Source of the DNA: a virus
Virus genome (UHGV): UHGV-0110025
Length of the DNA: 30,952 nt
Strand: one strand, 5' to 3'
Shown here: in pieces, positions 4,144 through 24,405 of the stretch
Layout of the letters: every line of letters begins with the position of its first letter
Numbering within the stretch: position 1 is the first letter of the stretch
Notes under the pieces: generated by a model
What the model saw: the letters and a program-made list of their open reading frames with translations, nothing else
What the model was told of the DNA's origin: nothing
Databases searched by the model: none
Translations under genes and position numbers: made by a program

Positions 4144-4364
4144 TGGCCGACGCAATGGATTTAGCACAACTGCGCGAGCAGGAAGACCGCGAGCGCCACA
4201 TCAGCAACGCGCGCAGCCGTATAGCAGCGTCCTCTCCTTTCCTCTGCGAAGAATGTGACTCACCAATCCCGGAAGCTCGCCGTGCTGCAATTCAGGGGGT
4301 GGCATTTTGCGTGACTTGTCAGCAAATCGCAGAGCTAAAAAACAAACACTATCGGGGGGTATAA
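4143..4364 (+). CDS. TraR/DksA-family C4 zinc-finger protein
   Basis: Four Cys in a C-x2-C ... C-x2-C arrangement (CEECDSP...CVTCQQ) in a 73-aa protein. ATGA start/stop overlap with the upstream ORF. Confidence 0.7.
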   Translation: MADAMDLAQLREQEDRERHISNARSRIAASSPFLCEECDSPIPEARRAAIQGVAFCVTCQQIAELKNKHYRGV

Positions 4365-4365
4365 A

Positions 4366-6588
4366 TTGGCTGTTCAATTCGCTTATCCGTGGAATGCTCC
4401 ACGATCGGCTATAGCCAGCCCATACCTTACTTATAAGCAACAGCATCGCCGCGACCGTATGTTCGCGGCGATGCTGCATGCTAAAAAGGTGCTTTCTCTC
4501 CAGCCCGACTGCGTGCGGTTAGATGTTTATCGCACTGCGGCAGTGCTGGAGCAAAATCAGGGCATTCAACGAGCCAATGCCTTTTTGATCAGCTTCTGCA
4601 AAAAGGCATTGCCGCGTCTTGAATTGGTCGCAAAAAAATACGAATGCGCGGGTATCAACAGCAAGGTATCAACCTCTGTTTTTGGAAGTCATTTTGATAC
4701 CCAGCTTATGCAATATCTGGCGTCACGCATGGTTAATATGGTCGCCCGATATAACCGCCTCCCGGATATGTCGCGCGCTGATGTTGACCTGTTGGCCGCC
4801 GATATTGCTAATTTCATTCGTGGTGAACTTGCCAACATTAATGACCACGGATTCGGCGAGCTTAAAACGCTGTACACCTGGTATAATCGTGCTGGCTTTA
4901 TTTCCCTCCAGTTCAACGTTATCCCCCCCCATTGGGATCGGGTTGCAAAAAAATATGTTGGCGCGGATGAAATCGCACCGGCTATCGCCAAGATGTTTAA
5001 CGATGGGTGGTGGCGTGGTCGTTTGCGCCGGGTTGCAGCTACGTGGCGCGAACACCTGCAAATTGCAGTCGGCAACGTCAGCAAGAAAAAAAACACCTAT
5101 GCGAGTAAAAACTGCGTGACTGACTGGCGTGAACAAAAGCGCCGAACTCGTGAATTTCTCAAAGGTCTGGATCTCGAAGACGAAGACGGCAACCGTATCA
5201 GCCTGATTGAAAAATATGATGGCTCAGTTGCTAACCCTGCGATTCGCCGCTGTGAGCTCATGACTCGCATTCGTGGGTTTGAAAACATCTGTAATGAGCT
5301 CGGTTATGTCGGTGAGTTTTACACTCTGACCGCGCCGTCGAAATATCACGCCACGACTAAAGCCGGTTACCGTAACAGCAAATGGAGCGGTGCCTGCCCG
5401 GCTGACACGCAAAACTATCTAACTGATATCTGGGCGCGTATCCGTGCCAAACTGCATCGGGAAGATGTCCGTATTTTCGGTATTCGTGTCGCCGAGCCCC
5501 ATCACGACGGTACTCCACACTGGCACATGCTGATGTTCATGCTGCCGGAAGATGTTGAATATGTTCGCTCCATCGTCCGTAAATACGCGTGGAAAGAAGA
5601 CCGCCGCGAACTGAAAAGCGATAAGGCAAAAAAAGCACGTTTCCACGCCGAGTCCATTGACCCGGAGAAAGGCAGCGCAACCGGCTATGTTGCTAAATAC
5701 ATATCAAAAAATATCGACGGTTATGCTCTCGATGGTGAAACCGATAATGAAAGCGGTGAACTGCTGAAAGAGACAGCCCCCGCCGTTTCAGCATGGGCTT
5801 CGCGCTGGCACATCCGTCAGTTTCAGTTTATCGGTGGTGCGCCGGTGACGGTTTACCGTGAGTTGCGTCGCCTCGCTGATACCGAAACCGCGCACGGACT
5901 GAGCGTTGAGTTTGCCGCCGTCCATGATGCCGCCGACGCTGGTGACTGGGCTGGTTATGTTAATGCGCAGGGTGGACCGTTTGTCCGTCGCGATGATTTA
6001 CAGGTGCGCACACTGTATGAACCACGTACCGAGCTTAATCAGTACGGTGAGGAAACGGTATGTATTAAGGGGGTCTACGATTCCTCCATAGGTGCAGGTA
6101 GCCCGATTTTAACCCGGCTCACTCAGTGGAAGATTGTTCCGAAGCATGCTGTTGATTTGGCCGTTGACCTTCAGGACGGCAAAGCCGTCCCTCGGAGTTC
6201 TGTCAATAACTGTACGGGAAGTGAAAGCGATCCACCGATACTGGATTTAACAAAACCACAGAGTCGGCGCGAAAGACGAGAGCTGACCAACCGACTCAGG
6301 AAGCAAAAACCAGCAATACGGCGAAAATTCGTCCACGGAATGGATGAGCAAAACGCAGCTATAGCGAAAACTATCGACGAGATACATCTGACAACCAGCA
6401 TCACAATCAGCCGGGGCGAAGCCCTGCACCTGATGGCAGGTGGGAAAAGCTGTTTTGATGGCAAATGGCTAAGGGGAACATCCAAAGGGGAGATATTTTC
6501 CACTGTCCCATCGAACCAAGCTAAAGCTAGTAAAATCCTCAATCGTGTTGCAGCGTTGGTAGAAGCATCAAAGTTAATAGATGATTAA
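4366..6588 (+). CDS. A: Replication initiation endonuclease (P2 gpA family, rolling-circle HUH nickase)
   Basis: 740-aa ORF with a histidine-rich metal-binding region EPHHDGTPHWHMLMF and a downstream tyrosine motif GYVAKYISKN, typical of gpA initiators. Apparent TTG start at 4366 after a G-rich SD; an in-frame ATG lies at 4459. Confidence 0.9.
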   Translation: MAVQFAYPWNAPRSAIASPYLTYKQQHRRDRMFAAMLHAKKVLSLQPDCVRLDVYRTAAVLEQNQGIQRANAFLISFCKKALPRLELVAKKYECAGINSKVSTSVFGSHFDTQLMQYLASRMVNMVARYNRLPDMSRADVDLLAADIANFIRGELANINDHGFGELKTLYTWYNRAGFISLQFNVIPPHWDRVAKKYVGADEIAPAIAKMFNDGWWRGRLRRVAATWREHLQIAVGNVSKKKNTYASKNCVTDWREQKRRTREFLKGLDLEDEDGNRISLIEKYDGSVANPAIRRCELMTRIRGFENICNELGYVGEFYTLTAPSKYHATTKAGYRNSKWSGACPADTQNYLTDIWARIRAKLHREDVRIFGIRVAEPHHDGTPHWHMLMFMLPEDVEYVRSIVRKYAWKEDRRELKSDKAKKARFHAESIDPEKGSATGYVAKYISKNIDGYALDGETDNESGELLKETAPAVSAWASRWHIRQFQFIGGAPVTVYRELRRLADTETAHGLSVEFAAVHDAADAGDWAGYVNAQGGPFVRRDDLQVRTLYEPRTELNQYGEETVCIKGVYDSSIGAGSPILTRLTQWKIVPKHAVDLAVDLQDGKAVPRSSVNNCTGSESDPPILDLTKPQSRRERRELTNRLRKQKPAIRRKFVHGMDEQNAAIAKTIDEIHLTTSITISRGEALHLMAGGKSCFDGKWLRGTSKGEIFSTVPSNQAKASKILNRVAALVEASKLIDD

Positions 6589-6662
6589 TTTACATCCATA
6601 TCATGCACATACAATACCTGCATGATTCACTTTTTCTCTTCCCATCATTTGCTAATACGTGA

Positions 6663-6682
6663 TACTGTACAAATATACAGTT
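6663..6682. promoter_or_regulatory. LexA (SOS) box TACTGTACAAATATACAGTT
   Basis: CTGT-N8-ACAG with an AT-rich spacer, close to the E. coli LexA consensus TACTGTATATATATACAGTA. Lies about 20 bp upstream of the ATG at 6703, with a candidate -35 TTGCTA at 6649-6654. Confidence 0.7.
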
Positions 6683-6702
6683 ATCATATTGGGAGGGATT
6701 TC

Positions 6703-6888
6703 ATGGTTGGGGAACATTTCAGCCGAACGCAGCAAAAGTGGGCTTGTGTGCAATTCATTGCCGAGATATCTCTGGTTGCAAACTGCAAGCCAGCAGACTT
6801 AAAGCTTGCGCTTACTCTCATTGCTGATCTGGCAAACAGCGAAAACAACGAAGAACCAGAAAATGAAGTCTTTTATAAGGCTGAATAG
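6703..6888 (+). CDS. Small SOS-controlled protein, candidate Tum-like antirepressor
   Basis: 61-aa ORF with SD GGGAGGGA (6691-6698), immediately downstream of the LexA box. It is downstream of gene A, where 186 carries the LexA-regulated tum gene. The protein has an acidic C-terminus; sequence identity to Tum is not verified. Confidence 0.45.
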   Translation: MVGEHFSRTQQKWACVQFIAEISLVANCKPADLKLALTLIADLANSENNEEPENEVFYKAE

Positions 6889-6891
6889 GTT

Positions 6892-7026
6892 ATGAAAATT
6901 AATCTCACATTGGATAAGAAACAAAAACTAGGCCGACCGGTTATTGATGCCTTTCAATGCGAATTGACCAAGAGGACACTGTCTATTTTTCCGTCAACAT
7001 GTGGTGCCGTCAAGAGAGCACTATGA
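6892..7026 (+). CDS. Small basic hypothetical ORF (44 aa)
   Basis: MKINLTLDKKQKLGRPVIDAFQCELTKRTLSIFPSTCGAVKRAL. Starts 3 nt after the stop of the Tum-like ORF, in the same frame. Below the 60-aa cutoff of the supplied track; translated by hand. Confidence 0.3.
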   Translation: MKINLTLDKKQKLGRPVIDAFQCELTKRTLSIFPSTCGAVKRAL

Positions 7027-7148
7027 GTGGTGCTGAGTTGATGGAGTTTGATATAGATTCAGATCGCGAGGCGCTTGATGGTATTCTCCAAGAAATCTGG
7101 GAAGACGAGCAGTTGGCGGTAGTTAATGACAGAATGTGCAGACCATAA
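7023..7148 (+). CDS. Small acidic hypothetical ORF (41 aa)
   Basis: MSGAELMEFDIDSDREALDGILQEIWEDEQLAVVNDRMCRP. Its ATG overlaps the TGA of the preceding 44-aa ORF (ATGA), suggesting translational coupling. Confidence 0.35.
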   Translation: MSGAELMEFDIDSDREALDGILQEIWEDEQLAVVNDRMCRP

Positions 7149-7193
7149 CCCTATGTCTAGTTGCACGGAGGTTAGAAAAAATGCTGTCCGAAT

Positions 7194-7214
7194 TAGCCCT
7201 CTCTCAGAGGGCTA
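7194..7214 (+). terminator. Perfect 9-bp-stem hairpin TAGCCCTCT-CTC-AGAGGGCTA
   Basis: Inverted repeat read from the sequence, downstream of the small-ORF cluster and upstream of the 7347 operon. A T-run (tgctgttttt) follows only after about 15 nt, so intrinsic-terminator function is uncertain. Confidence 0.35.
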
Positions 7215-7271
7215 TGAATTAAAAATGCTGTTTTTGATATGTTAACCTCTTAACAGTTTCATCTTTAAATC

Positions 7272-7299
7272 TTGTAAAGTAAAACTTTGCGTTTATGAT
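7272..7299 (+). promoter_or_regulatory. Candidate sigma70 promoter for the 7347-8947 operon
   Basis: -35 TTGTAA (7272-7277), 16-nt spacer, -10 TATGAT (7294-7299), in an AT-rich intergenic region. AAGGAG Shine-Dalgarno at 7333-7338 precedes ATG 7347. Confidence 0.35.
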
Positions 7300-7346
7300 T
7301 GATAAAAATTAAAAAAGTATGAAGAGGCTGTAAAGGAGTTTTATCA

Positions 7347-7862
7347 ATGCCTGGATTCCAAAATGCACAGCAAAATCAATTTGATGATCATGCTCCAGAA
7401 ATGGAGATAAACTTAATCGTAGATGTTGCTGAGCAGCCCGTAGCCTTTACCTATCAATATAGTGAGCAAATTAGCCACCTTGCACCGCAATGTCCGCCAG
7501 CAGAAGCGATTGAATGTGACAAAGAATGCTGGCGCTTCACTCTCAATCCGATAACGGACAGTTGCTTTTGGCCTCCAAAAAGAAGGGTTCCTGAGAGGGT
7601 TGCCTCAGACAGTCAGCAGGAGTGCTCTATGTGGGCGTTGTCTATGTATGAATCAGAGCGACAAGCTGTAGTCGCTTATTCTGGGCTTTCTAAGTCAGTG
7701 AGAAATATTAAGAAAACAATTGGAGATCACCTTGCAAGAGGCACGGTAGCTTGTGGTGATGGTAGATGTATGCCTCCAAATAGAAAAGGCCATTTTGACT
7801 TTCATCCATATTTAGATACTGAGTTCCCTGATGGCTTTCAGGTAATAAGAGCATTACCATGA
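7347..7862 (+). CDS. Hypothetical Cys-rich protein, gene 1 of an accessory two-gene operon
   Basis: 171-aa ORF with strong SD, AT-rich codon usage unlike the phage backbone, several Cys pairs (CPPAEAIECDKEC ... CGDGRC). No motif I recognise. Stop overlaps the next start (ATGA at 7859-7862). Confidence 0.6.
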   Translation: MPGFQNAQQNQFDDHAPEMEINLIVDVAEQPVAFTYQYSEQISHLAPQCPPAEAIECDKECWRFTLNPITDSCFWPPKRRVPERVASDSQQECSMWALSMYESERQAVVAYSGLSKSVRNIKKTIGDHLARGTVACGDGRCMPPNRKGHFDFHPYLDTEFPDGFQVIRALP

Positions 7863-8947
7863 TAAAATTAGATGCTAAAAGAATCACTGCACCGGAGGTC
7901 GGAGATTACTCGTGGTATTCTGACTTGGTGTATTTTGATGGACCACTGATTTGTTTATTTCGAGGAAGTGGCTATAAGGATGCTCTTTATGTTTGGCTTG
8001 ATAATTCAACCAGAGCCAACCGCTGGTGTTTAATACCTGTATCAAGGTCAACTTTAGATTCCTATCTTAATCAAAGAATGAGTCTAAGAGAAATCATACA
8101 ATCAAACGAATATGTTTATATTTGCAATCACTTTGCAGAAACAGGACGAAAAAATTATAGCCGTCTGAGCGTAGATGATTTCCCTGAGGAATATATGCCT
8201 GATGCTGACTCATATTTATATGAAGAAATATGCACCGATGACGCACTATTGTTAAAGCAAGAACGCACATCTAGCTATATGCTAGGACTGGACAACCAGT
8301 TGTTTATAAATGATTTATCAGAAATTCCAAAAATTTTCGAACAATTGTATTCTTTCCACTATGGACTTGCCCACTTGGGCAGAATTTCCATTAGAAATAC
8401 CATGCTGCGATTGATGGGTAGTTGGACTGGTGGATTCTCAGCAGTAAATATTTTCACTGGTTTAAAGAATGTCATTCCTGTCCTGCACCGCCCAGAAGTT
8501 AGCTCACTTCAATATAACTCCCCCGGACATATTGAATTGAACTTGCTTCCTGACTTGGCGCAGAGCGTTCAGGATGTATCTGTTCGTGTTGAAAATGAAT
8601 TTATTTATGACCGTTTAGAGAAAATCTATAAAAACAATTACACATACTTTAAAGATAAAGATCTATCAGGTTTTGATGAGGGTGGAGGAATTGAGTTAAG
8701 GAACATCGACTCTGAAACCACAGAAAATCTTCGTAAGCGTGTTAGAATTTTCTTTAGGTGTTTAGGTTGGAAAACCTATCAAGCGCAGTTTGATATGATC
8801 GGTGCCCATCCCTTGCAGCAGTTACGCGCAGTTATGGCGTATTACAGACGCCTGAAAACATTACGAGAATATATTGTGGCAGATAAATTATTCATTGGTC
8901 ATTCGCGAGTGCCGGTAGAGCAAATTACTGTGAATACTGAAAATTAG
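7859..8947 (+). CDS. Hypothetical protein, gene 2 of an accessory two-gene operon
   Basis: 362-aa ORF translationally coupled to the upstream gene, AT-rich. No P-loop, HExxH, HIT or other motif recognised. Located between gene A and cos. Confidence 0.65.
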   Translation: MIKLDAKRITAPEVGDYSWYSDLVYFDGPLICLFRGSGYKDALYVWLDNSTRANRWCLIPVSRSTLDSYLNQRMSLREIIQSNEYVYICNHFAETGRKNYSRLSVDDFPEEYMPDADSYLYEEICTDDALLLKQERTSSYMLGLDNQLFINDLSEIPKIFEQLYSFHYGLAHLGRISIRNTMLRLMGSWTGGFSAVNIFTGLKNVIPVLHRPEVSSLQYNSPGHIELNLLPDLAQSVQDVSVRVENEFIYDRLEKIYKNNYTYFKDKDLSGFDEGGGIELRNIDSETTENLRKRVRIFFRCLGWKTYQAQFDMIGAHPLQQLRAVMAYYRRLKTLREYIVADKLFIGHSRVPVEQITVNTEN

Positions 8948-9073: not shown

Positions 9074-9092
9074 GGCGTGGCGGGGAAAGCAT
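9074..9092. other. cos: cos site (19-nt cohesive end) GGCGTGGCGGGGAAAGCAT
   Basis: Differs at two positions from the P2 cohesive end as I recall it (GGCGAGGCGGGGAAAGCAC). Lies in a GC-rich non-coding stretch between the A-side accessory genes and portal gene Q, where cos sits in an integrated P2-type prophage. Confidence 0.7.
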
Positions 9093-9311
9093 TGCGCGCC
9101 AGCAGTGATGCGTAATAATAAAAATTATCCTCTGAGCGCGTCGTGATGGCGCTGTCGTGGTCGCTGCTGGTTCGTTGGTGGTCGGGTGTGTTCGTGCGCG
9201 TGAGACGCATCTGATGCGTGATGGTGGTGTGCATGGAAAAGCCACCAGGAGCAGCGGCTTTACAGGAGTGGCAGGATTCAAACTGCTAATTATGTTTCTA
9301 CTATGATTAAA

Positions 9312-10316
9312 CTAATTTACATGTATGTAGAGTTCACCGTCGCCAGACCAATCGGGACACTCTAAAACAAGCCCAAACTGCTTGAATATTTCATCAATGA
9401 TTATTGTTATCTCCCGAAAATCACCAAAACCTGTAATGTGCTGGTCATTAAACTTCCCATAAAGATTCTGAAAAGCAATGCCTAATTCTGATAATTGATA
9501 TCTTATCTTTGAGTTGGATAGTGTAAGGGATAGCTTTGGATCGTATTCTTTAATATTGATGTTTAGAGAATGGACATAACCCATCGCATAAGCATAAGAG
9601 TTGATGATTAGCCTGATACGTTTTTTTACTTCGAGATACATGTCATTCAGAGAAATATTACCGTACTTATAACCCCAGATGAGTTTTTCAATCTCGTCAG
9701 ATACTTCATTTACAACAGTGTCAAGATTCTCTAAAAATAAATCAATAGTTTCTTGAGGGGCAGACCCCGAAGACATGTAATTAGCGAGATATTCAGACCA
9801 TGCACGCGTGGCTGAGATAAGAAGCGCGCTACCATACTCGTTGACTGTAAAATTTTGGGCTAAGCATGTTAGTAAGTTTTTTTCATGTACGTGCACTAAT
9901 TCATGGTGAATGCGATGGATGACTGCGAGGTATCCTTCTTCTTTCAGTTTTAAGAAGCTACCATCATTGAAAAGCTCAACAAAAAAATCAATCGATAGCA
10001 CAAGGGTATATTCTTCACATAGCCCATCATTGCCAATTTTTGTTACTAACTGCCCGACGGCTGCGCCCTGTTTGCTATTGGTAAATGAACTAGGGGATTT
10101 GTGTTGGTAAGAGGATGTTACCTTTTGAAGAGCTTCACTGAAGTTATAGGAAACAATCACGCATTTTAATTTGGAGATATCAAGATTGAGATTTTTTGTT
10201 AAAGCTCGGATAGCTTCTAGTGTGAAATTACCGATATTATTTGCTTCTTGCTCAGTAGCGAAACCTTCGAGGGTTATTTTAAAATCAGTTTCCAAAATAT
10301 TAATCTCCGCGCCCAT
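9312..10316 (-). CDS. Hypothetical protein with HExxH zinc-metallopeptidase-like motif
   Basis: 334-aa ORF, AT-rich, containing IHRIHHELVHVHEKN (HELVH = HExxH, with a second HE just downstream). Inserted between cos and Q. No strong SD at ATG 10316. Confidence 0.65.
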   Translation of the reverse strand: MGAEINILETDFKITLEGFATEQEANNIGNFTLEAIRALTKNLNLDISKLKCVIVSYNFSEALQKVTSSYQHKSPSSFTNSKQGAAVGQLVTKIGNDGLCEEYTLVLSIDFFVELFNDGSFLKLKEEGYLAVIHRIHHELVHVHEKNLLTCLAQNFTVNEYGSALLISATRAWSEYLANYMSSGSAPQETIDLFLENLDTVVNEVSDEIEKLIWGYKYGNISLNDMYLEVKKRIRLIINSYAYAMGYVHSLNINIKEYDPKLSLTLSNSKIRYQLSELGIAFQNLYGKFNDQHITGFGDFREITIIIDEIFKQFGLVLECPDWSGDGELYIHVN

Positions 10317-10393
10317 TGTTTTGATATTCGATGCACTATAGCTTTCGCAGATTGCATCTTCAATAATGAGCGCAGAGATTGTGGCGGCCTAAG

Positions 10394-11440
10394 TTATTCT
10401 GGGTTGTCGAGGGTGTACTCTTTGAACCTGATGACCTCCATACCGAGCCAGTCGTTTACCTCCCTGAACCTATCCTGCAGGGGTGACAGCTCATTACGCA
10501 CAAATACCTTTGCCACCTTCTCAACGTCACCGAGTGAACCGATATTCTCGGGCTTGCCGCCCATGAGCTGGAACGGTACGCGGTGCGCGTCCATCAGATC
10601 GGCGGCACTGGCCTTCTTGATGTTGAAAAAGTCATCCTTTGTGGCGACCTCGCTCAGTGGCACGATTTTGATGCCGTCCGGTTTTCCGCCGGGAGCGTAG
10701 AAAAACAGGTTCTTAAAGTTGCCGAGCCCTTTTGAGTTGCGCATCGCCTCGCGCAGCGATTCGACGTCGGTCGCGCTCTGCGCCGGGTCAGTCACATACA
10801 TGATGTAACCCGCGTGCGCGCCGTTCTGATAATACTTGCGGCGGAACAGCGTCGCGGATTCATTCAGCCAGGCGGAATTTAGCGCGCTGAGATATTCGGG
10901 CAGGCCGTAAATCTCCTGATTAATGTCGGGCTCCAGCAGGTGAAACACGGTATCAGGCGCGAACTCGTGCGGCTGGGTGAAGTTTTCCACAAACCAGAAA
11001 ATCGAATCGTCGACTCCGCGTCGGGTGTATTTGGCTGGCGAGGCCAGCAGTTTGATTAACTGGCCGGTGACGCTGTGGCGCTGCTCAAGAAAGGCGTTAC
11101 CGAACACCAGATAATCGAGCGCAAAGCGGCTGAAATCCTGACGGGATAACAACGGGTGCGGAATGTAGGTGCTCGCGAGCACGTTACGCTTAACATAAAT
11201 TGGCGAGCTGTGATGCACGGCAGAGCGCAGGCTCTTTGCCAGCCCTGAGAAGCTGACCGGCGGCTCGTACCATTTGCCGTTACTGATGCACTCGACGTAA
11301 TCCAGAATGTCGCGCTTATCGAGTACCGGCACCGGCTCGCCGAAGGTGAACGCTGTCGTTTTTGGCGGTGCGCTGGCGGTCAGTTGTTGTGGTTTGCTGG
11401 CCTTTTGTGCGTTGGCTTTACGGGATTTTTGTTTACCCAT
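10394..11440 (-). CDS. Q: Portal protein (P2 gpQ family)
   Basis: 348-aa ORF on the minus strand immediately upstream of terminase P, the P2 Q-P arrangement next to cos. N-terminal basic region and overall length fit gpQ. Confidence 0.9.
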   Translation of the reverse strand: MGKQKSRKANAQKASKPQQLTASAPPKTTAFTFGEPVPVLDKRDILDYVECISNGKWYEPPVSFSGLAKSLRSAVHHSSPIYVKRNVLASTYIPHPLLSRQDFSRFALDYLVFGNAFLEQRHSVTGQLIKLLASPAKYTRRGVDDSIFWFVENFTQPHEFAPDTVFHLLEPDINQEIYGLPEYLSALNSAWLNESATLFRRKYYQNGAHAGYIMYVTDPAQSATDVESLREAMRNSKGLGNFKNLFFYAPGGKPDGIKIVPLSEVATKDDFFNIKKASAADLMDAHRVPFQLMGGKPENIGSLGDVEKVAKVFVRNELSPLQDRFREVNDWLGMEVIRFKEYTLDNPE

Positions 11441-18274: not shown

Positions 18275-18704
18275 CGCCGTGCCGCAGCTCCGAAATAATC
18301 CCGATATGCTGCGCCTTTTTGCCGACAACGGCCATACCGATTCCCGACTGGCGAGCTCGCTGTCGTTTGAAAAGGTGTACGTGCTTAACGTGGTGGTTAC
18401 CGACTTCACCGGTGACCTTGATTTGATATTCGTGCCGGTGCAGGCGTGGCTGCGTGAACATCAGCCGGACATTATGACCACCGACGACGGGCGGGAAAAA
18501 AGATTCACCTGGATTATTGATATCAATAACGACGATTCGCTCGATATCAGTATCAGCCTGAGGCTCACCGAGCGCACGCTCGTCAAAGAGGTCGACGGCG
18601 CGCTGCACGTCAGCTATGCCCCTGAGCCGCCACTGCCTGAGCCGGTGACGCGCCCGGTCGAGCTGTACGTTAACGGCGAACTGGTGAGTAAGTGGGATGA
18701 GTGA
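18237..18704 (+). CDS. R: Tail completion protein R (P2 gpR family)
   Basis: Start at ATG 18237 (MQKHKSLRKAL...) with AGGA 8 nt upstream; the six-frame ORF begins at 18228. Confidence 0.8.
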   Translation: MQKHKSLRKALINAVPQLRNNPDMLRLFADNGHTDSRLASSLSFEKVYVLNVVVTDFTGDLDLIFVPVQAWLREHQPDIMTTDDGREKRFTWIIDINNDDSLDISISLRLTERTLVKEVDGALHVSYAPEPPLPEPVTRPVELYVNGELVSKWDE

Positions 18705-19143
18705 ATTAACCGCGCTGCAGGAACGCCTTGCCGGTCTGATTGCCAGCCTGTCACCGGCGGCACGTCGGCAAATGGCGGCTGAGATTGCGAAAAAGCTGCG
18801 TACCAGTCAGCAACAGCGTATCAAGCGCCAGCAGGCACCCGACGGCACCCCGTATGCGGCACGAAAGCGCCAGCCGGTGCGGAGCAAGAAAGGTCGGATT
18901 AAACGTGAAATGTTCGCCAAACTGCGCACCAGTCGCTTTATGAAAGCCAAAGGCAGCGACAGTGCGGCGGTGGTGGAGTTTACCGGCAAGGTGCAGCGCA
19001 TGGCGCGGGTTCATCAGTACGGCCTCAAAGACCGGCCAAACCGTAACAGCCGGGATGTGCAGTACGAGGCGCGCCCGTTGCTCGGTTTCAATAGTATAGA
19101 TATGAGAATTATTGAGCGGTTAATAATTGGGGCTTTGGATTAA
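18697..19143 (+). CDS. S: Tail completion / virion morphogenesis protein S (P2 gpS family)
   Basis: 148-aa ORF overlapping the R stop, last gene of the capsid-lysis late operon. Confidence 0.8.
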   Translation: MSELTALQERLAGLIASLSPAARRQMAAEIAKKLRTSQQQRIKRQQAPDGTPYAARKRQPVRSKKGRIKREMFAKLRTSRFMKAKGSDSAAVVEFTGKVQRMARVHQYGLKDRPNRNSRDVQYEARPLLGFNSIDMRIIERLIIGALD

Positions 19144-19171
19144 TTATGATCTAATATATTATTTTGTGATG

Positions 19172-19200
19172 AGGCTGGATAAACACCAGCCTTGATTTTA
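19172..19200 (+). terminator. Rho-independent terminator after gene S
   Basis: Perfect 7-bp stem AGGCTGG / CCAGCCT with a 7-nt loop (19172-19192) followed by TGATTTTAT. Sits between the convergent S and HIT-like gene 3' ends. Confidence 0.45.
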
Positions 19201-19842
19201 TAGTTTGAAATCTGCGTAATTATCAATAACCTCTAGAACACCGCTGATATTGTTATCTCTGCGCCAATTCCAATTGCCATGTATCAAATTTGCATTAGAA
19301 TAAAGATATCTAAGGAACTGAGATGGTAAGAGTGGTTTGTTGCATAAAAATTCATCATAACTATTACTCATATACCACACATATCCATTTTTAATGTCAA
19401 AACTTAAATTCTCACCTTCAATTTTCTTAAAGTTAATTTCTTTATTTAGAGCATTTTCAAACTCTTGTGTATAATAAACACAGTGTATATGAGCGTGAGA
19501 AATGCACCCTCCTGAACGATCTATATTTTCACCTGCTCCGCTTTCAAAGAAAATTAGAGATCTACCAGATTGGTGGATTATAAATTCATTAAGTTCTCGC
19601 AGAATCTCCTTGCCATTACTCCGGGTATCTCGATCAAGAGCAGCAAAGGAGTTGATATGCCGCTTAGGAATCAGCATCACATGCGAATTATTTAGCGGGC
19701 CAATACTAGGTACAATTAGAAAATCATTTGTTTCTGCAATGATATTTTTCTTGTCATTTACGATTTCATCGTATCCTTTGATAAGGCTAATGCCATTTAT
19801 TTCATCGCATATTCCACAGAACGAATTACAAGAATTATTCAC
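19198..19842 (-). CDS. HIT (histidine-triad) superfamily nucleotide hydrolase/transferase-like protein with C-terminal extension
   Basis: N-terminal CNSFCGIC, then FLIVPSIGPLNNSHVMLIPKRHI and the histidine triad SGGCISHAHIHCV, matching the Hint/HIT pattern (C-x-F-C ... H-x-L-V-I-P-K-x-H-I ... H-x-H-x-H). About 90 aa follow the triad. Apparent GTG start; AT-rich island. Confidence 0.75.
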   Translation of the reverse strand: MNNSCNSFCGICDEINGISLIKGYDEIVNDKKNIIAETNDFLIVPSIGPLNNSHVMLIPKRHINSFAALDRDTRSNGKEILRELNEFIIHQSGRSLIFFESGAGENIDRSGGCISHAHIHCVYYTQEFENALNKEINFKKIEGENLSFDIKNGYVWYMSNSYDEFLCNKPLLPSQFLRYLYSNANLIHGNWNWRRDNNISGVLEVIDNYADFKL

Positions 19843-20356
19843 GTTTATTGTCTCCTGGTTTTTTAGGGAGCAATTTTTCAGCCCAAGATGCGAGTCGGCT
19901 TAGAACTAAGTCTGAAAAATATCCTAATATAAAACAAATCGAGAATGCAATTTTGGTCTTACCATGCCCTTTAATGGAGGATACAAACGTATCCGGAGAT
20001 AATATCGTATAAGAACAAAAAGCCACTAAAGCAGCTAAGAACGGAATAAAAATCCTCCAGTAGAACTTATGGGATTCCCAAGGAAAATTATACTGATTGT
20101 TTTTCCCTCTAGCAGTTACTCTATAAAACCATTTTGCATTATACACCCACCCTCCAAAAAAACCGCCAAGAATAGAAAACAAAGATATTTTATTATTATA
20201 TGACAGCTCAAAAACAAATTGGAAAAGAAAGGCGAGAATGCAACCTATTACAAAAAGAACTATTAAATAAGCAAATTCGAATTTTATTTGTTCACAATCG
20301 TTATTAAAATAAGGCACAACCTCATCATCGCCTAAGGTTTTTTTTCTTTCAGTCAT
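19835..20356 (-). CDS. Multi-pass membrane protein, upstream partner of the HIT-like gene
   Basis: About four hydrophobic helices (FAYLIVLFVIGCILAFLFQFVF, ISLFSILGGFFGGWVY, IFIPFLAALVAFCSYTIL, IAFSICFILGYFSDLVL). Its stop overlaps the HIT-like start by 8 nt. Start taken at ATG 20356 (SD GAAGGTG 8 nt upstream); the six-frame ORF extends to 20407 (TTG), with another ATG at 20401. Confidence 0.6.
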   Translation of the reverse strand: MTERKKTLGDDEVVPYFNNDCEQIKFEFAYLIVLFVIGCILAFLFQFVFELSYNNKISLFSILGGFFGGWVYNAKWFYRVTARGKNNQYNFPWESHKFYWRIFIPFLAALVAFCSYTILSPDTFVSSIKGHGKTKIAFSICFILGYFSDLVLSRLASWAEKLLPKKPGDNKRE

Positions 20357-20532
20357 TTGCCAAACACCTTCATTTTTTACTGTGAGCCAGGGTAATTGCA
20401 TATTCAACTTGGCTATTCTAATTAATTCTCACAAGATTTCATAGATGTTGAGTAGACCTCTCAGAAGTTGTTTCATTCCTCACAGAATCCATCTCGATTG
20501 CCACTAATCTTGCCGGGCGTCATCCTTCCCAT

Positions 20533-21168
20533 ATGAAAAATCTAAATTCTTTGCAAGAAATCGCACGCGCGATCCGAAATCTCATCCGTACCGGCATCGT
20601 TAGCGACGTAGACCTCAAGGAGGGGCTATGTCGTATCCAGACCGGGGGGATGCAAACCACTTGGCTGAACTGGCTGACCACCCGAGCCGGTCGTTCGCGG
20701 ACGTGGTGGGCTCCCTCGGTCGGTGAGCAGGTTCTGCTGCTGGCAATCGGTGGCGAGCTTGATACCGCTTTCGTGCTGCCGGGTATTTTCTCCGACGATA
20801 ACCCCGCCCCGTCTGCCTCGGCGGATGCGTGGCATGTGGCTTTCCCTGATGGTGCGGTCATTGAGTACGAGCCCGAAACCGGCGCGCTGACGGTCAGCGG
20901 CATAAAAACGGCCGACGTGACGGCATCGGAGTCCATCACCGCAACCGTACCGCTGGTACTGGTGAAAGCCTCGACCAGTATCACCCTCGACACCCCGGAG
21001 GTGATTTGCACCAATAAGCTAACGACGGCGACGCTTGAGGTGCAGAAAGGCGGCAAGATGAGCGGCAATATCGAACATACCGGCGGGTCACTGTCGTCTA
21101 ATGGCAAGGTACTCCACACCCATAAACACCCGGGCGACAGCGGCGGGCAAACGGGGGCACCGTTATGA
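20533..21168 (+). CDS. V: Baseplate assembly protein V / spike (P2 gpV family)
   Basis: 211-aa ORF, first gene of the baseplate/fibre operon, with a Gly-rich C-terminus (HTHKHPGDSGGQTGAP). Confidence 0.85.
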   Translation: MKNLNSLQEIARAIRNLIRTGIVSDVDLKEGLCRIQTGGMQTTWLNWLTTRAGRSRTWWAPSVGEQVLLLAIGGELDTAFVLPGIFSDDNPAPSASADAWHVAFPDGAVIEYEPETGALTVSGIKTADVTASESITATVPLVLVKASTSITLDTPEVICTNKLTTATLEVQKGGKMSGNIEHTGGSLSSNGKVLHTHKHPGDSGGQTGAPL

Positions 21169-22427: not shown

Positions 22428-23028
22428 CCGGCTATTACCCGTTGGCTCGTCGCCGCTGGAGGTCGCCGCCGCCGCTGCGTTCTCTGAGATTCAGCGCGTG
22501 CCGGTACCGCTACGCACCCTGTGGAACTGGCGCACCTGCCCGGTAAAGCTGCTGCCGTATCTGGCGTGGGCGCTGTCGGTCGACAGGTGGGATGAGAAAT
22601 GGCCGGAGGCGACAAAGCGCAGCGTCTGCGCGTCCTCGTTTTTCGTCCATCAGCACAAAGGCACCATCAGCGCATTGCGTCGGGTCGTCGAGCCGCTCGG
22701 CTTTCTGATTGAGGTGCGCGAGTGGTGGCAACTCGACGAGGAGCCAGGCACATTCCGCCTCGTTGTTGGCGTCCTCGACAGCGGCATCACTGACGAAATG
22801 TATCAGGAGCTTGAGCGCCTGATTGAAGACGCCAAACCGGCAAGTCGCCACCTGACCGGGCTGGCTATCAGTCTGAGCTCGACCGGCGAACTGTATGTCG
22901 GCGCGGGATGCTATCACGGCGACGCACTGACTGTTTACCCCTACACCCCCGAGGAGATTGTCGTCGGCGGTGAATATTACCCGGCCTCGGCCATCCATTT
23001 GATTGATAACCTGAGAGTAAACGCATGA
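22420..23028 (+). CDS. I: Tail/baseplate protein I (P2 gpI family)
   Basis: 202-aa ORF overlapping the J stop, preceding the tail fibre gene. Confidence 0.85.
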   Translation: MNDRLLPVGSSPLEVAAAAAFSEIQRVPVPLRTLWNWRTCPVKLLPYLAWALSVDRWDEKWPEATKRSVCASSFFVHQHKGTISALRRVVEPLGFLIEVREWWQLDEEPGTFRLVVGVLDSGITDEMYQELERLIEDAKPASRHLTGLAISLSSTGELYVGAGCYHGDALTVYPYTPEEIVVGGEYYPASAIHLIDNLRVNA

Positions 23029-23990
23029 CCGCAAAATATTTTGCCATTCTGACCAATCAGGGCGCGGCGCGGCTGGCGAACGCGGCGGCACTCGGTACCA
23101 AACTCAACCTGACGCAGATGGCCGTCGGTGATGCGAATGGTACGTTGCCGACCCCTGACCCGGCGCAGACGAAGCTCATTAACCAGAAACGCATCGCGCC
23201 GCTGAACCTGCTGACCGTTGACCCGGCCAATACCAGTCAGATTATCGCGGAACAGATTATTCCCGAGAATGAAGGTGGTTTCTGGATCCGCGAGATTGGT
23301 CTCTATGACGATGATGGTATTCTGATTGCCGTGGCGAACTGTCCGGAGACCTACAAGCCACAACTGCAGGAGGGAAGCGGTCGCACGCAGACCATTCGCA
23401 TGATTCTGATTGTGTCGAGCACATCGGCAATCACCCTGAAAATCGACCCGGCAGTCGTGCTGGCAACGCGCCAGTATGTCGACGATAAGGTTATCGAGGT
23501 GAAAGCTTATGCTGATGACCTGATGAAAAAGCATGTTGAAGCCGTAAATCCGCATAAGCAGTACCCGCTGATTGCCAACGCGCTTAAAGAAATGGTTGAT
23601 GCCGGACTGGTTGATGAGATTTTTGCAAATTTAGGGTTGGGAACAGCCGCAAAAAAAGACATTGGTACGGGGGCTAATCAGATTCCAGATATGAATAGCT
23701 TCAATGGGAGTCTTGGTACAAATGGTTACTCGAAACTGCCAAATGGGCTAATTTTTCAATGGGGATGGTTTAGTATGAAATCCACATCAGGTGCGGTTGG
23801 GACAAGCACAGTTACGCTTCCAATTGCATTCCCTGTAGCATTTTTAACGCTTACAGCTTTGTTTAGTACACAGGATCCATCAACGCGTTCAGTTGGCTTT
23901 AATACAGCACTATCGGGGAAAACAGCAATTAACTTTACATATGTTTCACCAACTGACAATTCTATTTTTTGGTTTGCGGTGGGGTGCTGA
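23025..23990 (+). CDS. H: Tail fibre protein (P2 gpH-like conserved N-terminus, short divergent C-terminal tip)
   Basis: N-terminus MTAKYFAILTNQGAARLANA... resembles gpH. At 321 aa it is much shorter than P2 H, and the last ~130 codons drop sharply in GC. Confidence 0.8.
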   Translation: MTAKYFAILTNQGAARLANAAALGTKLNLTQMAVGDANGTLPTPDPAQTKLINQKRIAPLNLLTVDPANTSQIIAEQIIPENEGGFWIREIGLYDDDGILIAVANCPETYKPQLQEGSGRTQTIRMILIVSSTSAITLKIDPAVVLATRQYVDDKVIEVKAYADDLMKKHVEAVNPHKQYPLIANALKEMVDAGLVDEIFANLGLGTAAKKDIGTGANQIPDMNSFNGSLGTNGYSKLPNGLIFQWGWFSMKSTSGAVGTSTVTLPIAFPVAFLTLTALFSTQDPSTRSVGFNTALSGKTAINFTYVSPTDNSIFWFAVGC

Positions 23991-23991
23991 G

Positions 23992-24405
23992 ATGGAAAAA
24001 ATATACTACTTTGACCCTGCAAGTCCTGGTTTCTACATCTCACCTGATAGCCCGTTAATTCCTGAAGGTTCTGTAGAAATTAGAGTCGAACAATATATGC
24101 AATATGCCGGGATTGCGTGGCCGGAAAATAAAGTATTGGGTGCTGATTCTTCGGGGCTACCTGCATGGCTGGATGCGCCACCGAAGACAAAACAAGAGAT
24201 GATTGACGAGGCAAAAGGTCGCCGGGTAAATCTGATTACCGAGGCTAAAGACGCCATTAGCCTGTGGCAGACCGAGCTGCAACTCGGCATCGTCAGCGAC
24301 GATGACAAGGCCAACCTGATTGCATGGATGAAATACATTCAGGCGCTGAACGCGGTCGACACCTCAACAGCACCGGATATCGAGTGGCCGGTAAAACCGG
24401 AATAA
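23992..24405 (+). CDS. G: Tail fibre assembly chaperone (P2 gpG / Tfa family)
   Basis: Start ATG 23992 immediately after the H stop (MEKIYYFDPASPGFY...). 137 aa. The 5' part shares the low GC of the H tip. Confidence 0.75.
   Translation: MEKIYYFDPASPGFYISPDSPLIPEGSVEIRVEQYMQYAGIAWPENKVLGADSSGLPAWLDAPPKTKQEMIDEAKGRRVNLITEAKDAISLWQTELQLGIVSDDDKANLIAWMKYIQALNAVDTSTAPDIEWPVKPE

Follow-up and report, generated by a model that had tools for sequence, protein, structure and literature searches.

What is the role of a gene with a zinc peptidase motif that lies between the cohesive-end site and the portal gene of a temperate phage, and how does it sit among the genes around it? The question is raised by UHGV-0110025, a virus genome of 30,952 nucleotides (nt) that was analysed over its whole length, referred to here as the window, and that represents a prophage of the 186/P2 type (Peduoviridae). 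The gene is an open reading frame (ORF) of 334 amino acids (aa), as counted from its ATG, at positions 9312..10316 of the minus strand between cos and the portal gene. An earlier inspection of the letters of this genome (the original prediction) had described it as AT-rich, with a HELVHVHE motif resembling that of zinc metallopeptidases, and as inserted at a place where P2-like genomes have cos close to the end of gene Q. It had also proposed that the product is a solitary metalloprotease that could serve abortive infection or anti-defence. Coordinates, GC content and motif are all as claimed, with HELVHVHE forming residues 138-145 of the 334-aa product.

The cos-proximal region between gpA and gpQ is a known and experimentally supported defence hotspot of P2 (PMC9122126; PMC9519451), which holds old, tin and many validated defence systems (PMC9122126; PMC9519451; PMC13586616). 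As variable, non-core cargo located between gpA and gpQ beside cos, the gene belongs to this hotspot. Its presence there is not new, as an identical 334-aa protein is listed by Rousset et al. 2022 as system #76 of Table S5B, a single protein with no Pfam family, 51 occurrences and no note (PMC9122126). A 2026 Nucleic Acids Research (NAR) survey of P2/P4 hotspots reported new defence functions from P4 loci only, and in the literature on metalloprotease defence systems we found nothing that describes this protein family. What appears to be new here is the assignment of the protein to a zinc-protease family and the anatomy of its insertion. Our analysis indicates, with high probability, that the ORF is a real cargo gene for an active metallopeptidase, as judged from its conserved residues and modelled fold.

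A cassette inserted between the portal gene and its terminator

Two landmarks bound the locus. The left one, outside of the insertion, is the cohesive-end core GGCGTGGCGGGGAAAGCAT of cos (9074..9092, plus strand), which equals nt 1-19 of phage 186, annotated as cos in that genome, and has 2 mismatches to the cos sequence of P2. The right one is the portal gene (10394..11440, minus strand), known as Q in P2 and W in 186 (Pfam Phage_portal, E = 5e-13), which lies on the same strand as the cassette and next to the gene for the large terminase. GC content is 37.4% in the ORF, 55.6% in the portal gene and 57.0% in the terminase gene.

Pairwise alignment with phage 186 delimits the inserted segment. 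Nucleotides 1-193 of 186 correspond to window positions 9074-9266 and nt 178-260 correspond to 10382-10458; homology with 186 therefore stops at 9266 and restarts at 10382, leaving a single-gene cassette of ~1.1 kb with 37.2% GC (9267..10381, minus strand). The portal (W) gene of phage 186 ends with a stop codon at nt 196, so that just 196 nt separate it from cos, against ~1300 nt in the window; its terminator tW occupies nt 164-187. Since the alignment breaks and resumes at these points, the cassette is slotted between the portal stop codon and tW. The terminator maps to about window 9238-9260, where a hairpin with a T-run that matches tW is found at 9241..9255 (minus strand), now downstream of the inserted gene. 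This hairpin 3' of the inserted gene probably now terminates it; the Salmonella and Citrobacter copies keep the hairpin, with changes that preserve the stem.

Among 33 phage records that share the flanks of this locus, only vB_EcoM-613R3 has the gene and the other 32 are without it. Together with the break in homology and the ~1.1 kb of additional spacing relative to 186, this establishes that the gene is inserted, as the original prediction held. Related phages thus do not uniformly carry a homologue with a virion or packaging role, which was the finding that was to count against the prediction, and such a role was rejected given that almost all relatives are without the gene.

The junctions have a feature of their own. 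A ~12-nt direct repeat (TGGCGGCTTTACAGG at 9254-9266 and TGGCGGCCTAAG at 10382-10393) flanks the insertion and corresponds to one arm of tW, with a half-terminator left behind the portal gene. Repetition of a tW arm at both junctions suggests that the cassette entered via recombination at the terminator hairpin.

The position of the cassette also bears on its expression. A scan for consensus sites predicts a sigma-70-like promoter (TTGAAG-17 nt-TATAGT; 10335..10363, minus strand) between the portal stop codon and the gene, in a region where the count of promoter-like sites is not above shuffled expectation. Both hexamers of this promoter, along with a GGAG-TTG pair discussed below, are conserved between copies from Escherichia coli, Salmonella and Citrobacter that encode proteins of just ~90% identity. 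There is no terminator-like site between 10316 and 10394, that is between the portal gene and the cassette. Because the hexamers are conserved across copies and no terminator separates the two genes, we infer dual expression: the lysogen would transcribe the gene from the promoter of the cassette, and the late terminase-portal transcript would extend into it by read-through.

The GGAG at 10305-10308, followed after 9 nt by a TTG at 10293-10295 (together 10293..10308, minus strand), is the likely true ribosome-binding site and start codon. Translation would then probably start with the TTG at 10295 and give a product of 327 aa. This TTG is used as the start in the Prokaryotic Genome Annotation Pipeline (PGAP) annotation of E. 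coli strain 222, and a Yersinia homologue has an equivalent TTG start with no in-frame ATG further upstream. Additionally, the conserved part of the protein starts at residue 8, an equivalent ME(P/T)D opens most homologues, and homologues are mostly 323-329 aa in length.

An unnamed family of gluzincin-like proteins

Searches of Pfam, NCBIfam and PADLOC with the protein gave no significant match, and PHROGs gave matches only to families of unknown function (phrog_11743). The protein nevertheless belongs to a large family. An exhaustive profile search (E <= 0.001) found 344 cluster representatives, which correspond to at least 344 clusters at 50% identity and of which nearly all are 300-340 aa long and matched over their full length. 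A second homologue search with the profile of distant members added four proteins, all nameless. We used two alignments, one of 28 close members (A1) and one of 94 distant members (A2) that are 17-50% identical to the query.

Conservation in these alignments is concentrated in a putative zinc site. Exactly four columns are invariant in A2, namely H138, E139, H142 and E175, and the first three are invariant in all 28 close and 94 distant members. The HExxH motif (H138-E139-L140-V141-H142), encoded by CAT GAA TTA GTG CAC at 9891-9905 of the minus strand, is predicted to supply two zinc ligands and the catalytic Glu. E175, within the codons for W173-S174-E175-Y176 (9789..9800, minus strand), lies 32 residues past H142 on the next predicted helix and is proposed as the third zinc ligand from its invariance and the helix prediction. 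Residues W173, Y176, A178, G246 and G315 are conserved in at least 90% of the distant members. In 120 of 122 full-length representatives HExxH is kept, and in 111 it is followed at a distance of 20-50 residues by W-x-E-[YFW]; loss of the motif among homologues, which was to count against the original prediction, is therefore not what is seen. Some members of the family give weak Pfam matches to Peptidase_Mx1, PhageMetallopep and Peptidase_M64.

The AlphaFold2 model has a predicted local distance difference test (pLDDT) score of 90 and a predicted template modelling (pTM) score of 0.89, and is ordered from residue 10. It consists of an N-terminal alpha/beta subdomain, an alpha-helix at 126-148 that carries HExxH, a helix at 160-185 that carries E175, a C-terminal helical domain and a terminal hairpin. 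The predicted fold matches the catalytic domains of gluzincins (thermolysin-like). Foldseek searches of BFVD and the PDB returned nothing at E <= 0.001, so that the structural likeness must be regarded as distant, and querying PDB sequences with either the protein itself or the A2 profile yielded nothing beyond spurious coiled-coil matches, which were discarded.

On the basis of the invariant HExxH...E tetrad and the predicted fold, we place this unnamed family among the gluzincin-like zincins. The metallopeptidase call of the original prediction thus very probably describes a genuine zinc metallopeptidase, and we would expect the protein to be a catalytically active zinc endopeptidase. It has a mass of 37.8 kDa, an isoelectric point (pI) of 5.0 and a maximum Kyte-Doolittle value of 1.19. 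Neither a signal peptide nor a transmembrane segment was found in our own analysis of the sequence, and these entries are likewise blank in Table S5B of PMC9122126. Given that no hydrophobic segment is present, the protein is predicted to be soluble and cytoplasmic. Comparison of the alleles of E. coli, Citrobacter and Salmonella gave a ratio of nonsynonymous to synonymous substitution rates (dN/dS) of 0.18-0.28, which is indicative of purifying selection.

Two distant representatives of ~590 aa, P0137 and P0206, carry DUF2971 at their N terminus, joined to the complete zincin domain, and these are the 2 such fusions among 150 listed representatives, of 344 clusters in all. DUF2971 adopts an ADP-ribosyltransferase fold of the DarT/AbiGi type (PMC12522546), and Aristaios, a validated lactococcal abortive-infection system, consists of this domain alone (PMC11381338). 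The fusions thus link the family with conflict systems. The zinc site is intact in P0206 and degenerate in P0137 (H138 replaced by Arg and E175 by Ala), where the rest of the domain is kept. The fold can therefore persist without catalysis, which hints that the zincin domain can act as a recognition module.

Distribution and genomic neighbourhood

Among 5426 complete E. coli genomes, 26 contain the gene, always as a single copy and always in the chromosome, with extraintestinal pathogenic isolates among the carriers. It is very common at the same position in P2-like prophages of Salmonella enterica (~2000 assembly blocks). Homologues at 40-60% identity occur in a variety of other settings. They follow the portal and Ogr/Delta genes, in the same orientation, in Yersinia-type P2-like phages; one lies at the margin of an unrelated prophage whose portal is of the SU10 type; and one is next to the inovirus genes Rep_trans, RstB and Zot in an inovirus-like element. 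Others lie beside resolvases, in resolvase or toxin islands, or in chromosomal variable regions of Shewanella, Psychromonas and Kosakonia. The wider set of hosts includes Shewanella, Psychromonas, Pseudoalteromonas, Colwellia, Gilliamella, Bacillus and environmental metagenome-assembled genomes.

A search for related loci with the A1 alignment gave 13 loci. To survey neighbours we used the 84 proteins encoded within three genes of 15 homologue loci, a sample that is too small for enrichment statistics, and no Pfam family occurred in more than 2 of these 84 proteins. A conserved partner gene was rejected on this ground.

On the gpA side of cos the window itself encodes PD-T4-10 (7347..8947, plus strand; PADLOC E = 6.5e-69 for A and 3.3e-169 for B), whose A and B components are overlapping ORFs of 171 aa and 362 aa. 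The gap between this system and the gene, across cos, is 365 nt, and cos of the window prophage is thus flanked by a known defence system on one side and by a candidate on the other. Vassallo et al. 2022 described PD-T4-10 as a toxin-antitoxin system for abortive infection, which is complete with its two genes (PMC9519451). In vB_EcoM-613R3 and in E. coli 222 its place left of cos is taken by a 313-aa hypothetical protein, while strain PKF8 has only small ORFs left of cos. As cargo left of cos differs between prophages, the gene is independent of PD-T4-10, and the possibility that it is a third component of that system was rejected as it occurs with other cargo, or with none, elsewhere. The 313-aa protein (4858-5799, minus strand, in the vB_EcoM-613R3 locus and 4584-5525, minus strand, in that of E. 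coli 222) has no Pfam match and is another unannotated cargo gene of the hotspot.

Varied cargo across cos, together with the absence of a conserved partner gene, indicates that the gene is solitary, in agreement with the original prediction. It is a single-gene cassette that moves between unrelated mobile elements. In Candidatus Marinarcus (locus 4280-8867), a distant homologue, 28% identical in part of its sequence, shares ~10 nt with the end of an upstream ORF of 1211 aa that has no PADLOC match; this ORF may be an operon partner in that lineage only.

Proposed role in phage exclusion

We propose, by analogy, that this moron cassette of a 186/P2-type prophage provides a cytoplasmic metalloprotease for phage exclusion or abortive infection, and regard the arguments for and against this proposal as evenly balanced. 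The abortive-infection or anti-defence role that was originally suggested is made plausible by the location in a defence hotspot, by several unrelated mobile carriers and by the rare DUF2971 fusions, and it is reasonable to treat the gene as a candidate for protease-based phage exclusion. In the proposed mechanism, the lysogen would express the protease from its own sigma-70-like promoter, with additional transcription by read-through from the late terminase-portal operon. The protein would be a latent, self-contained protease, in the manner of Lit, that recognises a protein from an incoming phage. Recognition would lead either to destruction of that phage protein or, once the protease is triggered, to cleavage of an essential host factor such that the infection is aborted. 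The benefit to the lysogen would be exclusion of other phages.

Several observations weigh against exclusion. The hotspot also bears cargo unrelated to defence, including partition systems and cytolethal distending toxin (PMC9122126), and the sequence is absent from Table S2 of systems that Rousset et al. evaluated for defence (PMC9122126). PADLOC v2 gave no match at E <= 1. Some distant homologues do adjoin defence genes, which are AbiO/Nhi in a Bacillus, DpdF-like and helicase genes in an Alteromonadaceae genome and a TIR protein gene in Colwellia, but such neighbours are anecdotal, at about 3-5 of 15 loci. Finally, read-through from the late operon would fit a role in the lytic cycle of the phage itself equally well.

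This last point leads to the alternative that best survives, namely a counter-defence or lytic-cycle helper function, in which a protease made late would favour the carrier phage by degrading a protein of host immunity or stress, or one of a P4-type satellite. The gene is directly downstream of the portal gene on the same strand, the sole terminator is the tW that follows the cassette, and the Yersinia-type P2-like phages likewise have it after portal and Ogr/Delta in the same orientation. However, conservation of the promoter-like hexamers across copies suggests expression in the lysogen, many homologues lie outside of phages in chromosomal or resolvase-flanked islands where a lytic-cycle role makes little sense, and the hotspot is best known for defence cargo. 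We therefore think this explanation unlikely.

Prophages are also known to carry effector proteases such as NleC and GtgA/GogA, and the gene could by comparison promote host fitness or virulence independently of phage conflict, for example if its zinc protease were secreted or injected. The ~2000 Salmonella enterica assembly blocks and the extraintestinal pathogenic E. coli carriers fit AT-rich prophage cargo of this kind, and the P2 hotspot does hold toxins such as cytolethal distending toxin. On the other hand, the protein has no signal peptide or transmembrane segment, its model is ordered from residue 10, and it has no Pfam match to effector peptidase families. Moreover, its homologues extend from Shewanella, Psychromonas, Pseudoalteromonas and Colwellia to Gilliamella, Bacillus and metagenomes, in which matching secretion systems are assumed to be absent. 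A virulence function consequently seems quite improbable.

Less credible still is a regulatory protease of the ImmA/IrrE type (M78, COG2856), whose cleavage of a repressor or antitoxin would regulate the prophage or a nearby toxin-antitoxin pair, PD-T4-10 for instance. Mobile elements often encode HExxH metallopeptidases with Xre-type repressors as their substrates (PMC12828697), and PD-T4-10 lies 365 nt from the gene across cos. However, there is no Peptidase_M78 match and no adjacent helix-turn-helix (HTH) gene in the window, HTH_3 occurs in just 2 of the 84 neighbouring proteins of homologues, the gene is found without PD-T4-10 in most contexts, and a product of 327-334 aa with a large C-terminal helical domain is unlike M78. 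Equally hard to credit is a zincin fold that serves mainly as a binding or sensor module, such as a decoy substrate-binding protein. The P0137 fusion, which retains the domain without H138 and E175, speaks for such a role, but among the stand-alone proteins, despite their very wide divergence, nothing except the catalytic tetrad is invariant, which is the signature of selection for catalysis.

If exclusion of other phages is indeed the function of this cassette, it might be the founder of a new family of stand-alone, protease-based anti-phage immunity unrelated to Lit. Such a family would comprise latent gluzincins in P2-like and other prophages, very common in Salmonella, with the same domain in a sensing or regulatory capacity in the DUF2971 fusions. 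We advance this broader proposal only tentatively and are inclined to doubt it. The family is nevertheless large, with at least 344 clusters and neither a Pfam nor a defence-database entry, and is present in prophages of thousands of Salmonella assemblies and of clinical E. coli. A role in phage exclusion would provide annotation tools with a new single-gene defence system, would explain part of the "dark" cargo of the P2 hotspot and would have a bearing on the host range of therapeutic phages in Salmonella and E. coli. Irrespective of function, the junctions illustrate how a moron may be slotted between a gene and its terminator, such that it would borrow the terminator and receive late read-through.

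Additional features of the window

A second AT-rich island (33-38% GC) is present at ~19150-20500, between ORFs of 148 aa (18697..19143) and 211 aa (20533..21168), in what we take to be the tail and baseplate gene block. It has two minus-strand ORFs (19835..20407 and 19198..19842) that overlap by 8 nt and encode a hydrophobic 190-aa protein without a family match and a 214-aa HIT-like protein with a HAHIH motif (Pfam HIT, 9.6e-5; DcpS_C, 2.3e-6; CwfJ_C_1, 1.6e-6). Neither is in PADLOC v2. The island may be a two-gene cargo of a membrane protein and a HIT hydrolase; P2 carries orf30 at this position. GC content also falls to 42% at 23500-24000, which covers the C-terminal part of the presumed tail-fibre gene (from its position; 23025..23990) and the start of the next ORF, and is consistent with a swapped host-range module.

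Comparison with known systems

The closest analogue of the window protein in logic, and not a relative, is Lit, a cell-death peptidase (MEROPS U49) from the cryptic prophage e14 of E. coli. To our knowledge, few protease-based abortive-infection genes are understood mechanistically, with Lit being the classical example. Lit is latent until the Gol peptide of T4 triggers cleavage of EF-Tu, and this provides the mechanistic template for our proposal. Both proteins are solitary, prophage-encoded HExxH proteins of ~300 aa with no partner, and Lit is cytoplasmic as is predicted for the window protein. They differ in that the fold and the proposed third ligand of the latter are gluzincin-like. Homology to Lit was rejected, as hhalign of the A2 alignment against Lit of strain K-12 gave a probability of 15% over 17 columns around the motif and BLASTP gave nothing; there was also no Pfam match to Lit-type (U49) models at E <= 1.

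Gluzincins of clan MA(E), which include M1 aminopeptidases, M4 thermolysin, M9 collagenase and M30 hyicolysin/lugdulysin, share with the protein only 8-13% sequence identity, and there is no Pfam or PDB sequence match. The protein is set apart from them by its HExxH-32-E spacing with the Glu in a WSEY motif, by a distinct C-terminal helical domain of ~125 residues and by its predicted cytoplasmic, stand-alone nature. The GxMEN motif that characterises M1-type exopeptidases is not seen in its sequence. M78 ImmA/IrrE proteins (COG2856) are likewise HExxH zinc peptidases of prophages and integrative elements. They differ in lacking a family match to the window protein, in the adjacent Xre/HTH substrate gene that is missing here and in size and architecture, known M78 peptidases being much shorter than 327-334 aa. 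Aristaios relates to the family through DUF2971, the domain to which two distant representatives are fused, while the window protein is without it.

As hotspot cargo, the cassette shares its locus with validated systems, one of which, PD-T4-10, adjoins it. Most described cargo, however, is on the gpA side of cos, whereas this cassette is on the portal side and inside the portal transcription unit. The kind of locus is known and the protein family in it is new; should the gene serve defence, it would add a further form of protease-based exclusion.

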